Positions 5,401 through 22,678 of a DNA stretch of 27,420 bases are shown here, piece by piece; the first letter of the stretch is position 1, and every line of letters starts with the position of its first letter. The stretch is from Vermamoeba vermiformis (lineage: Eukaryota). The position numbers and the translations under genes were made by a program. Under the pieces are notes generated by a model. It saw only the letters and a list, made by a program, of their open reading frames with translations, was not told the DNA's origin and made no database searches. The stretch lies in assembly GCA_045837725.1 (NCBI GenBank), contig JBEWZL010000012.1, positions 186,001 through 213,420 on the forward strand, in the 5' to 3' direction.

Positions 5401-8050
5401 TAATTTAAGAATTTTGTAATAAACTGTCAATCGTCAAGAGCTGAAAATTTTGGCTAGTTTTTGTGGGGTCTGTTTAGTCGTATGACCTCTACTTCACTTA
5501 ATTATAGTCGTGACTTACCAATGAAAATCTTTTCACAACCAGGGTACTCGCATCGCAATGTGTCATTGTTCACGCGCTTCAGTTTCTCCATTTGCGCGTC
5601 AAAATCGTCGTCATCGCTCTCATTTACGAGGTTCTTTGCGACAACATTATCTTCTGCTGAATTCTCAATGGAATTGAATTGTTCCACGGGTGGTGGGCCT
5701 TGTTCCCTGGGCTTGACTTCCGGTTTTGGAGCGTGTTCTGTGTTATTATTAGGCTCAATCTCCATTGCATTAGGATTCGCTTGCGGAGCCTGTTGCTGCG
5801 GCTGCTTTGCGGTCTCATCAACGTCCATATAATTCTCCTTGCGGTCCTCGTTGTCTTGGCTCAGATTCATCTGGTCCGCAATCATAATCGGCCGTGGGAA
5901 ACTATCGTGTAAATGGAAGAAATCCGCATGTTGGTTATCAATATGATCGCGCAGCGCGAAGTCAGCGTAGAAGGATTCAACGCAGCCCGGGAAGATGCAC
6001 TTGAAGGGCTTGAAGCCGTCGTGAAGATTGTGCACGTGGTTCTCGAGCATGTAGAACAAGTAGATGCCTAGCGATGAGTCCGCGTACTCCCCTGCTTCTT
6101 TTCTTCGGTAGTCCGTGGATGTTGAAGGCACTTGTGACTTGAGCAGAATTTTTGACTTGCGGCCGCAGTCGGGACATGGTGGCGGGACGTGTCGGATAAT
6201 GTTAGTTGCTGGCTTTGTAGGAGTCTTATTTACGGCCTATAAGAGAAGGGTTTTAGTCATTTTCACGGAAACTGCTATCAACTTGTCAAAAGACCGCGGC
6301 GGATCGCGCGAATAAATCATATGTAAATTTCATCGCCTTGCATCATCAATGTTGCAATAACAATAGTACATACCTGTGTTGCACCATTGTTATCGACATT
6401 AACTTCAGTCTTAACATCAGCTCGCTGTTGAGTATCAGCCTCGACATGCGGTAATGATGCAAGATCTATCATTGTGGTAACAGCTGCTGGCTTAGTTTCA
6501 TTAGCTTGAGCTTGTTGAGGGGCCTAATGTAATGCGTAAGACTAATTGTTCATATACTACCGTGAAATCATACTTTTGGTGGCTCTTTAGTTTCGGATGT
6601 GGAGGGTACCGGACTGTCTTTTTTAAACTCTCGTTGTAATTCTTTTCTGAATATAGCCAAGCCTATTATCAAGCTATGTCAGTTATACTGTCCAAATATG
6701 ATATTGAAGGATTATTAGGCGTTTTTGATTGCTCGTGTAACGGCTTGGAAGCTTTGCGTGCATCTGCTCTGAAAACTAATTCAAGGAATTCTTACCATCG
6801 TCTTCGCTATCCTCGTTATCTTCATCAACAGCATAGGCTTTAACTACAAAGCTATCGCTATCGCTGCCGCTGTGATCCGACGCATCTGATTCTTGTTTCT
6901 TTTCAACAACTTTCTTGGGCTTACGACCAGGTCTTCCAACAGACTTCTTGCTCGTTACACTCTCCTCTTTTGATTCGGAGACATCTTCGCCGCGCTCTTT
7001 CTTTGTTTTCTTCTGTTGTTTATTCCATTCTTTCTCGCGCAGATCCATCATCTGTTTCAAGGCTTGTTCGTGTTTCTTTTTCTCGGGAAGAAGATGAGAG
7101 GGTAGGTCTGGGGGCCGTTGTTTCATTTGTGCGCGGCGCCTCGTAGGAACTTTTTTGTAACTTTCTTTTTGCCATTCGTAAGCCTCCTCGAGCGCTTGTT
7201 GAAAAAGCTTTCCTTTGCGACCGACGGACGTAAATTTCTCAAAATTATCGTCCCAAGGTCGGATTTTATCAGGTTCCATCCATCCGCTATAGTATTAAAA
7301 CAATAGAGTTAAAATTTTGTCGTTCGAAGTGCGGCATCTCCGTCAAAAAAATTTCTTTGCATCGTCATGAAATTGAAGTTAAAATAGCGAGTGTACTCAG
7401 TGAGAAGATTAATAATCATTCATTCAGTAAAGCCCTCTTTGCGAGGGTGGAACGAGAAGATTTATCATCATAATACACTCGAATAATTCAATCAAAAATT
7501 CTAAATAAATGCTAAAAATTGTCTATAGAGTTCTACTTACTATGCATGACTTCCAAAAAAGTATACGAGTACTAAGCCTTCTCGTCCAAGCTTTTGAACG
7601 TCCGCTGAAACTTCGAGCACATCCGCCCTCTAAAACAATCGGATTCGATGTTAATAAAAATAGTCTACATATTTTTCTTAATTTTCCTAGAGGATAAGGA
7701 AGGTAATTTTATGGGTTGTAGCTTAAAATTTTGATTTCAAAATATGAAACGGATTTTAAGGATGAAGGTCAACGAACGAAATTAATCGCTTGAGTAATTT
7801 ACATATTCCTTAATTATGAGGATGATTTTAAGCAAATATTTTGCGGGCGATTTTAATTTTTTGTGACTAATCTGCTGACTTGAAGAGAAGTTCAAATTCC
7901 CTTAAATAATCCAGAATAATTTAGAATAAAATATTACTAGCAATTCCATCATATACAAATCATATAAAAGCATAGTATAATTTTATTTACCCTTGCCGGC
8001 CAAAACGGAAACCCTTCGATCTCAATCCAGCCAAGCTCGCCGTATTCCAT
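2446..8050 (-). CDS. PWWP + C2H2 zinc finger + multiple AT-hook chromatin/DNA-binding protein (~993 aa, 15 exons)
   Basis: Exons 8050-7991, 7629-7541, 7286-6796, 6662-6574, 6523-6374, 6236-5519, 5318-5184, 5027-4903, 4782-4694, 4377-4197, 3970-3844, 3768-3722, 3496-3378, 3105-2904, 2805-2446 join in frame. PWWP: GELGWIEIEGFPFWPAR...VLVYFFGSHAYGWMEPDKIRPW...LFQQALEEA. Zinc fingers: CIFPGC..DHIDNQH and CEYPGC..RKHVEISH. AT-hooks: KRGRGRPRK x3, GPGRPRK x2, GPGRPKK. Confidence 0.85.
7388..7481 (-). ncRNA. SNORD7: Intronic box C/D snoRNA, probable U6 snRNA A47 2'-O-methylation guide (mgU6-47/SNORD7/Z30 family)
   Basis: Lies in intron 2 of the PWWP gene, same strand. 8-bp terminal stem CGAGTGTA/TACACTCG; box C ATGATGA (7471-7465); D' CTGA (7427-7424); C'-like ATGATTA (7419-7413); box D CTGA (7400-7397). 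The D guide TAATCTTCTC is complementary to the conserved U6 sequence GAGAAGAUUA, and the D+5 rule points to A47 (human numbering). Confidence 0.88.
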
Positions 8051-20134: not shown

Positions 20135-22678
20135 TCAATTTGTTATTGTTTGCACGCGTCGCAAAAACTTTCTCGCCCAGATGCTGTACAAAACTGCGCC
20201 GCATGCAACTGAACCCACTGAAGTCAATACCAAATAGACGTAGTCTTCAGGGTCACTAGAAATGAAACAATTAATAAATAACCGAAGAAAATGCGTCTCT
20301 CGTGTAACGATCGGATTGCGTCTCTAAAGAACATAGTAGAGCAGTTCTAAAGAGATCTAAACCGATAATTTGTATAATATGAGGATATGTGTACTTCGTA
20401 AAATTATTAGATAAGAGCTATATAGTTTTCTAATAAAGATCTTTTTCGGTACACAGCGAGATCGAGTGAGATCGATTTACATACCTTGCTATAATACCCA
20501 ATGCATAGCTCATCAATGCAAACACATTCGTGAGCGAGTATTCAACCGAATTAACGACGCCTCGCTCTTCTTCTCGAACATGAAGTTGCATCATCTGCGT
20601 TTCAATTAAATCGAACGACCACAAAGGCGCCTATGTAAATGACCTTATTAATACAATACATGGCACCGCAAGTTAGACTAGCTTAAATAATAATTCCAAA
20701 GTTCACAAACGAGATTCAGGGAAGTGTGGATCGACTCCATGAATCCGGATAAAATATTTGATTTGTAAGTTACTTGATAAAGAATATGACGTACCCTAGA
20801 CAGAATGATCGGTACCAAGAAGAACCAGACGTTGATATCGAAGTAGAAGTAGGGAACAGCACCTGCGATCAGTACGAGCTGGAACCAAATTGAATAAAGA
20901 CCCGTAATTTCCAATCCAAACTATAAATGCACCATCAGTACCCCAAATACATGTTTGTAGTACAGATGCTAATTGATTTAGCTGAACGAAACGCAAACTC
21001 GAGCTCCATCCGCAACCAGTAATTCCATTTCTTCGTTATATAACTTGACGTACCTTAGATATGAGCCACGGAGTCAAAAATGTAGCAGTAATACCAAAAG
21101 TCGAAGCTAGAGCTTGAAATACACCGACTTCAATGCTCGAAACATCGCGTGTACCCAAGTACGCTAACGAAAAACAGATCAGCTAAAGAACTTTAAATTG
21201 CACATAGTATGAAAGCATATACGCTGTTATAACGATTTGTAGTATTAAGTTGATTTTTGAAAGGATCCAAATTTTTCTCAGATCGTGTAACGGACAGATG
21301 TAGGATTGGGTTGTTGTATAGAAGTTCAATAAATACGTACCTGTCATTAATGAGCCAGGGCTAAGCACAGTCAAGTACAGGAACACATAAGCAAAGCTGC
21401 CTAAGAATACTGACTGCGCGAAGTACAACTTCCAGCCCTTGAAAATCATCAACAGTTGATTAGGCTTGCGCTTAGGTGGATCAGGTGGCGGCGGGGCTTG
21501 AATTTCATCGGAGTTCACGTCGAGTTGTGGATTTGGTGCTGCTGCGTGGTTTGTGCTCGGGATCTCTTCATCTTCTACATTTTCTTCGTAAAATCCTCCT
21601 TTAGGCATTGCTAATTGCGGTACCTCTCGATAAATGAAATGGTACATAGTCATTTCTATGAATAAATACGATTAGTAAGCGTTTCTGGCAGTTCCTTGCT
21701 TTAACCGATCCTCGATCTACTACATAAAGCTGAATTCAAACAGCTCAATATGTATATTAGCGAATAATATATATGAGATATGTTGCGCTTAACATTCAAT
21801 ATGAGCGCATTGTATAAAGTGCAAGGTACATCCGCCGAAGCGTGTACTGGCTTGAATAAGACTTACCAGGAAAGAACGAGCATATATTCCATGCAGATAC
21901 AAATATGAGCGAGACATACACCCCTGCAAACTGCAACAATGCGCTGAATACTACTGGCGTAAACACTTTACAAAACAAGTCGATCCGACGCACGTTGGCA
22001 TTAGTCTCTGTAATAATATTACGTTAAGATTATATTGTAATGGAGACTATAATATGAGTAATATTAGTATTAATTTAACGAAGGCGTACCTGATAATCGT
22101 TTTTCAGCCGCTGGATGTGTTTTACATAACACGATCGTCCAATCTTTCGCAATTGAAATCTAGGAATATAATATTAATATTGTACTAATATATTATCCTA
22201 TCAATGCTTACACTTGTAGCCATTGAAGCTACGGCTGATGTTGCAGAAAAAACATTGAGTGCGATGAATAATAGGATAAAACCAGCCGATTTAGGGGGCA
22301 GATCCTATACGGAAATAAGAGGTTATTATGATTATACTTTATTATGATAATAGACACTACTTACGTTATCAGCCGGAAAAAAGCGAAAAATTAATATTAA
22401 CAATACAAAACTGATTATTACAGAAGTGTTCTGCGATACCAATGATATTCTAATCACTATAATATGACAATATGAGTCATATAATACCAATATAGACCAT
22501 ATCTAGTGTTGTACGCACCTTTCAATCGGTTGTATTTATCGATCCAGTAGCCGACGGCAGATCCAGTCAGAATTACTGCTAGCGTCGCTACAAATGATAG
22601 TATACTAGGCAATAATAAAGAGCCACGATACAGTTCTGAGAATAGAAGCGGCACTGAGAACGTCCACATTTTTTTTTT

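Follow-up and report, generated by a model that had tools for sequence, protein, structure and literature searches.

Why should a small nucleolar RNA (snoRNA) that already carries a guide for U6 small nuclear RNA (snRNA) also carry a second stretch complementary to the same part of U6? This question is raised by a locus in a stretch of 27,420 nucleotides (nt) of Vermamoeba vermiformis DNA (assembly GCA_045837725.1, contig JBEWZL010000012.1, positions 186,001 to 213,420 of the forward strand; hereafter the window, numbered from its first letter). On its minus strand lies a 92-nt unit (7389-7480) that, as read from the sequence, is a textbook box C/D snoRNA and a predicted guide for 2'-O-methylation of U6 at A47 (Am47). 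Just 3' of its box C we find an element of 15 nt (7448-7462) whose complementarity to U6, layout within the snoRNA, conservation and intronic position are all directly seen. The explanation that we favor, with about even confidence, is that it would serve an intron-encoded snoRNA for U6 Am47 as an accessory ("extra base-pairing") antisense element, occupying a D'-side guide region that has no other use.

A second U6-directed element in a predicted A47 guide snoRNA

The plus strand at 7448-7462 reads TGGAACGAGAAGATT and the minus strand AATCTTCTCGTTCCA, starting 2 nt past the box C ATGATGA, and the snoRNA thus contains the element AAUCUUCUCGUUCCA. As stand-ins for U6 we used 11 environmental eukaryotic U6 genes that are contaminants of bacterial genome bins; the host's own U6 is not among them. 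These genes were picked by an exact 26-nt motif, which makes positions 41-66 identical by construction and leaves the upstream part alone as independent. There, the unselected U6 positions 32-40 read TGGAACGAT / UGGAACGAU in 10 of the 11 genes, with L006 deviating. Against this U6 the element forms 15 pairs (with U6 32-37 and 44-52) around a bulge of 6 nt, with a predicted energy of -16.6 kcal/mol. It is made of two halves: half A, UCGUUCCA, pairs at 7448-7453 with U6 32-37 or, counted up to 7455, with U6 32-39 (UGGAACGA), while half B, AAUCUUCUC (7454-7462), pairs with U6 44-52 (GAGAAGAUU). The "UC" where they join has two possible partners in U6, G44A45 or G38A39, and the bulge is accordingly 38-43 (GAUACA) or 40-45 (UACAGA). 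The bacterial-bin contigs that provided U6 (L001 to L011) are clusters of eukaryotic noncoding RNA genes with many transfer RNAs, U2, U4, U5, 5S, signal recognition particle RNA and U3 besides U6, i.e., contamination.

The anatomy of the snoRNA is that expected of the box C/D class, with box C near the 5' end, box D near the 3' end, a terminal stem, and internal boxes D' and C'. On the minus strand, the terminal stem of 7 bp (GAGUGUA / UACACUC; 7474-7480 / 7389-7395) encloses a perfect box C AUGAUGA (7465-7471), a spacer of 2 nt (7463-7464) and then the element, directly 3' of which RNAfold predicts a 15-nt hairpin CCCUC-GCAAA-GAGGG (7433-7447). There follow the spacer CUUUA (7428-7432), box D' CUGA (7424-7427), box C' AUGAUUA (7413-7419), the 12-nt D guide UUAAUCUUCUCA (7401-7412) and box D CUGA (7397-7400). 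The D guide forms 11 pairs with U6 G44-G54 at -13.6 kcal/mol when the environmental U6 consensus, which may differ from the host's U6, is taken as the target. In the same duplex the fifth nucleotide upstream of box D stands opposite A47, which is the methylated position under the fifth-nucleotide rule as described in PMC5389607.

Similarity to known families lies mostly in this guide. Searches of the window at Rfam gathering thresholds gave no matches, and the snoRNA did not reach the gathering score of RF00288 or RF01196. Below threshold, snoZ30a (19.1 bits; threshold 80) and snoZ30 (16.8 bits; threshold 50) match over 7393-7476, and these matches rest mostly on the common guide. Of the D guide, AATCTTCTC is present twice in the snoRNA, at 7402-7410 and again within the element at 7454-7462, and the targets of element and guide overlap by 9 nt of U6 that include A47. 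The element is not placed as a guide itself: hairpin and spacer put 20 nt (15 nt plus 5 nt) between it and the D' CUGA, and because they intervene before D' it would be unable to direct methylation. We also considered and rejected a reading of this region as an ordinary D' guide, since in the three orthologues described next D' follows the hairpin at distances of 5, 7 and 3 nt, and different nucleotides would be targeted each time.

To find relatives, metagenome contigs were scanned for a box C, a gap of 40 to 70 nt, and an A47 guide with box D. This pattern occurs at 116 loci at least, most of which (L012 and many loci from gut metagenomes) represent one recurrent bacterial coding-like sequence and are false positives. 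After discarding this sequence and all matches without a purine before UGAUGA, the scan left at least 58 matches in at least 57 loci, amounting to at least 50 distinct sequences including the window. In viral contigs, the U6 motif had no matches and the snoRNA pattern occurred at 14 loci, none of which is snoRNA-like by eye. Of the relatives, L103 is a syntenic orthologue located in the same intron of the same PWWP-domain gene, with about 76% DNA identity over window positions 6571-7633. Its element is identical to that of the window in all 15 nt. A further copy, L119, is non-syntenic and more distant and can be aligned over 79 nt only; the 92-nt snoRNA as a whole is kept in both.

Among these three orthologues, the element has 3 of 15 variable columns, all of them compatible with U6 pairing, while the flanking intron varies in 52 of 60 and 44 of 53 columns on its two sides. 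Boxes C (0/7), C' (0/7) and D (0/4) as well as the D guide (0/12) are invariant, box D' varies in one of four columns (CUGA in the window and L119, AUGA or UUGA in L103), and the spacers vary in both columns between box C and the element and in three of five between hairpin and D'. The hairpin after the element is predicted by RNAfold in all three. The variable columns of the element come from L119, where it reads AAUCUUC--GUUCCG. Its final A has become a G that can still form a G.U pair with U6 U32, and 2 nt are missing precisely where one half meets the other. This deletion would be tolerable because U6 bulges at the junction, while an uninterrupted target could not absorb it. On this comparative evidence the element is real and under constraint, and it constitutes a conserved element outside of the boxes and methylation guides.

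The initial annotation of this locus had described a Z30/SNORD7-like A47 guide snoRNA with a second, bipartite U6-complementary element that is no D or D' guide and overlaps the D guide's target, and had made conservation in orthologues a test of it. Anatomy and guide position agree with the first of these points, the 15 pairs around 6 skipped nucleotides and the repeated nonamer with the second, and L103 and L119 have kept the element.

A fourth snoRNA, L116, is otherwise dissimilar to that of the window and yet shows the same order of parts, with box C, 4 nt, CUCUUC, AUCGUUCCAAUU, a 6-bp hairpin that differs from that of the window and sits at the same place, a spacer, D' CUGA, C' AUGAAGA, the A47 guide, and box D. 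Its AUCGUUCCAAUU provides 12 nt of complementarity to U6 29-40. RNAduplex prefers a register for the second half in which CUCU pairs with U6 43-46 and A43 is consequently paired, not bulged. L116 thus supports, at the level of sequence, a U6-directed element with an adjoining hairpin and not a fixed loop-out of A43. RNAalifold on all four copies gave no useful consensus, with L116 being misaligned by MAFFT. None of L103, L116, L119 and two further candidates (L037 and L046) has an Rfam match at gathering thresholds.

Directly upstream of D', some copies contain another short complementarity to U6. UUUA in the window and AUUUUA in L103 match U6 26-31, and L116 (1663-1754, plus strand) has AAUUUUA, complementary to U6 26-32, 1 nt before its D' CUGA; L119 has none. 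These stretches are AU-rich and the match may be due to chance. If it were real, U6 26-39 would be paired on both sides of the snoRNA hairpin.

The host intron and its surroundings

The snoRNA is encoded in sense orientation within a GT..AG intron of 254 nt (7287-7540, minus strand) of a gene for a PWWP-domain protein, with 60 nt between it and the 5' splice site and 102 nt up to the 3' one. One read of run X21, two reads of run X23 and one contig of X9 contain the splice joint 7286/7541, and the PWWP-domain protein P0001 maps by tblastn to minus-strand exons on both sides of the snoRNA. A water-metagenome contig, X5, matches 7313-7535 with zero differences. Over the coding exon at 6900-7300, RNA runs carrying the species label of the best DNA source are mostly only 90% to 95% alike to the window, while X9, which bears another organism label, and the water metagenome X5 are 99% to 100% alike; it may be that divergent lineages share one name.

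A Pfam search of 18 open reading frames (ORFs) of the window gave a single match, to ferroportin (PF06963; E 7.5e-14), in an exon-sized ORF at 21183-21671 on the minus strand that is unrelated to the snoRNA element. The homologues of the PWWP-domain and ferroportin-like ORFs are unnamed proteins only, and one ORF of the window had no homologues in the protein search.

What the element may do on U6

Half A is directed against a part of U6 that can be engaged in the telestem. In U6 of animal type (L001, L004, L006), RNAfold pairs UGGAACG (32-38) with CGUUCCA near the 3' end, while U6 of protist or plant type (e.g., L011) forms a telestem CGAUAC/GUAUCG instead; in human U6, according to Aoyama et al. 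2020 (PMC7229813), the telestem occupies 33-39 and UACAG forms an adjacent bulge. The 3' telestem strand of animal-type U6 has the same sequence as UCGUUCCA of the snoRNA, and AAUC recurs in both. The two differ in that the element would act between molecules and pairs on into GAGAAG, where U6's own strand leaves an internal loop. Any reading of the element as a telestem mimic depends on the type of U6, and the host may not have the animal type. As a separate observation, the minus strand of window positions 7448-7471 aligns in sense with the 3' part of the U6 gene L001 (1089-1195, minus strand) as GAUGA ... AAAUC ... CGUUCCAC; this likeness could be a coincidence of the common pairing strand or a hint of the element's origin.

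Since the 3' telestem strand would have to give way for the element to bind, we read the element as a possible unfolding or docking aid. From the arrangement of the pairings we infer binding, an order of events and an effect on methylation as follows. The element would bind a single-stranded or telestem part of U6, with half A pairing to U6 32-39 (the 5' telestem strand) and half B to U6 44-52, leaving the ACAGAG-box nucleotides between them unpaired. This would dock the snoRNA-protein particle (snoRNP) on U6 while displacing U6's 3' telestem strand. The D guide, which contains the identical AAUCUUCUC, could then take over U6 44-54 by strand exchange, half A might remain bound, and fibrillarin would finally methylate A47. 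When the whole window snoRNA is folded together with whole U6 using RNAcofold, the minimum-energy structure contains both the bipartite pairing and the hairpin with either type of U6. Whole-region RNAduplex runs gave implausible long-range pairings. The initial annotation had likewise proposed docking followed by exchange, which is plausible given the precedent described by van Nues et al. 2011 (PMC3116282).

Several observations weigh against this explanation. The element was judged against environmental U6 and not the host's own, and the copies found among the matches listed are three close ones and one distant one. The distant copy, L116, has a short second half of ambiguous register, with either UCUUC against U6 46-50 (ACAGA bulged) or CUCU against 43-46. 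RNAcofold uses the D guide and not the element for L103 with U6 of the L011 type and for L119 with either type. In the RNA itself, half B might be a relic of internal guide duplication, and a 15-bp duplex within a closed snoRNA loop may be hindered sterically or topologically in the ribonucleoprotein. RNA depth is 0 over 7310-7514 in runs X21 and X23, which are ordinary complementary DNA libraries and probably unsuited to small RNAs. True covariation is impossible with an invariant target in U6. Finally, duplex energy by itself is not beyond chance and does not discriminate, and on a single sequence the match exceeds chance only modestly: when AATCTTCTC is followed by each of the 4,096 hexamers, 147 do as well in energy or better, 33 of 5,000 random 15-mers from the window reach -16.6 kcal/mol, and 16% of 24-mers obtained by shuffling pair with whole U6 at -16 kcal/mol or better. 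The element is lifted above chance because it is conserved in orthologues.

The best-surviving alternative, which we consider possible though clearly less probable than an accessory element made of both halves, is that only half A (UCGUUCCA) matters. It would pair with U6 32-39 while the D guide holds 44-54, the two helices being linked on U6 by U40-A43 and forming a junction about the C/D kink-turn, and AAUCUUC would be a linker in the snoRNA with inherited guide likeness; the element would then be a plain accessory guide. Such a geometry is the standard reading of extra base-pairing as described in PMC3116282, its two helices together comprise 19 pairs compared to 15 in the contiguous mode, and the strongest match of L116 is half A alone, with 12 nt against U6 29-40. 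A free linker would be expected to drift, yet half A of L116 is still immediately preceded by a CU-rich stretch, and AAUCUUC is unchanged in the three close orthologues while the adjoining 2-nt spacer and the spacer after the hairpin vary.

The element could also work in the opposite direction, as a competitor or regulator that keeps a non-methylatable hold on U6 and thereby tunes down or times Am47 or retains U6 in the nucleolus. The 9-nt overlap that includes A47 would fit such a role, as would the greater predicted stability of the element's duplex compared to that of the guide (-16.6 versus -13.6 kcal/mol), and van Nues et al. (PMC3116282) have suggested a regulatory role for HBII-316, in which the methylation site is covered by the extra pairing. 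A built-in inhibitor that is kept for long beside a perfectly conserved guide is a less economical solution than a helper, and we regard this possibility as rather improbable.

We give the same low standing to a scenario in which the element has no U6-binding function and is either a decayed D' guide from internal duplication or a guide or site for another RNA or a protein. Repetition of AAUCUUCUC within one snoRNA and the weak single-sequence statistics are what one would expect in this case. Several features speak for U6 instead: the element is strongly constrained relative to its flanks, the deletion in L119 would break any contiguous target yet is tolerated at the U6 bulge, the additional GUUCCA lies outside the duplicated guide and yet matches U6 just upstream, and L116 independently matches this U6 segment over 12 nt.

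A far-reaching extension of the docking idea seems less probable still. Here, the snoRNA would be an RNA chaperone with a built-in telestem-strand mimic that invades the telestem, captures U6 32-52 with ACAGAG looped out, hands GAGAAGAUU over to the D guide in an isoenergetic step, and gates access of the N6-methyladenosine (m6A) enzyme such that m6A43 and Am47 are made in a fixed order.

Least probable, and to our judgment very unlikely, is the narrower proposal of the initial annotation, by which the element would loop UACAGA out and thereby either present A43 to METTL16 or shield it, coupling m6A43 to Am47: while A41-A43 are indeed unpaired in every register of the three close orthologues and METTL16's U6 substrate is described with UACAG bulged next to the telestem (PMC7229813), the snoRNA would replace the telestem partner and keep G44-U52, including G46-A48, in Watson-Crick pairs, and the best L116 duplex pairs A43. 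According to Aoyama et al. 2020 (PMC7229813), METTL16 activity dropped when GAA 46-48, G88 or U89 of a non-canonical "transition region" were mutated, and METTL16 depends on the U6 internal stem-loop, which its C-terminal domain needs. In comparison with the substrate described there, our predicted duplex differs in having G46-A48 Watson-Crick paired to the snoRNA. The link to m6A43 found no support, and that description and the L116 duplex speak against "presentation" of A43. In terms of these modelled duplexes presentation is unlikely, whereas shielding of A43 is possible.

Relation to known snoRNAs and accessory pairings

The predicted methylation guide is of a well-known kind. In mgU6-47/SNORD7/Z30 (RF00288) and in plant snoZ30a (RF01196), the D guide UAAUCUUCUC is followed by 1 nt and CUGA and places A47 at the fifth position just like in the window, and the cmscan consensus lines show agreement between the A47 guides of vertebrates, plants and the window. 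PMC7960923 lists SNORD7 as guide for Am47. The 5' half of the window snoRNA is unrelated to the Z30 families, whose Rfam consensus sequences, checked by eye, are unlike the window in lacking a GUUCC element.

Among A47 snoRNAs, a second U6-directed element in the 5' half is, judging from the matches listed, common, because the guide UGCGUGUCA for C77 (U6 74-82) stands directly before D' in 11 of 50 distinct A47 candidates (L030, L033, L039, L048, L060, L065, L066, L095, L097, L120 and L127, with D' AUGA or CUGA), and L037 (11 nt against U6 78-88), L019 and L020 (8-9 nt against U6 69-77) carry other ones. The mgU6-77/SNORD10-type elements abut D' with C77 at the fifth position and are thus ordinary guides, whereas the element in the window lies 20 nt from D' and is directed against U6 32-52. 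For humans, PMC7960923 assigns C77 and A47 to different snoRNAs, SNORD10 and SNORD7. In the lineage of the window, the second element would be a non-methylating one aimed at U6 32-52.

A closer parallel is found in snoRNAs that modify ribosomal RNA (rRNA). Their extra base-pairing elements are described as conserved, forming 4-11 bp, often located in the unused second guide region and not beside D or D' (van Nues et al. 2011, PMC3116282), and complementary to the target beside the methylation site (PMC3116282, PMC5389607). Such pairing can extend into the target of the guide itself, in HBII-316 by up to 5 nt that include the methylated nucleotide, and the roles proposed are docking near the site, which would aid the guide against competing local structure, or regulation of methylation (PMC3116282). 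Compared to this class (snR75, snR13, U18 and human HBII-316; van Nues et al. 2011, van Nues and Watkins 2017), the element in the window has every property that can be read from sequence, including adjacency of the two pairings, with the half A target at U6 32-39 lying 4-6 nt upstream of the guide duplex. It differs in its target, which is U6 snRNA and not rRNA, in the extent of overlap (9 nt versus the 1-5 nt reported there), in its bipartite pairing around a bulge of 6-8 nt in the target, and in the conserved hairpin that adjoins it. Relative to the rRNA class, these four features would be new, and stimulation of methylation by the element is putative.

Our limited literature search gave no description of accessory snoRNA pairing with U6 or its telestem, which is a weak negative. 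Little is understood of how snoRNPs reach U6, which is tightly folded and bound by proteins, and in mammals the adaptor protein LARP7 has been invoked for this step (PMC11863803). An element that duplicates the guide's target and at the same time copies a telestem strand would be a way of solving this problem by RNA alone. If the accessory element indeed works in this way, it would extend the accessory-guide principle from rRNA to spliceosomal RNA and would offer a simple, mutable system for studying docking and strand hand-off in a C/D snoRNP.

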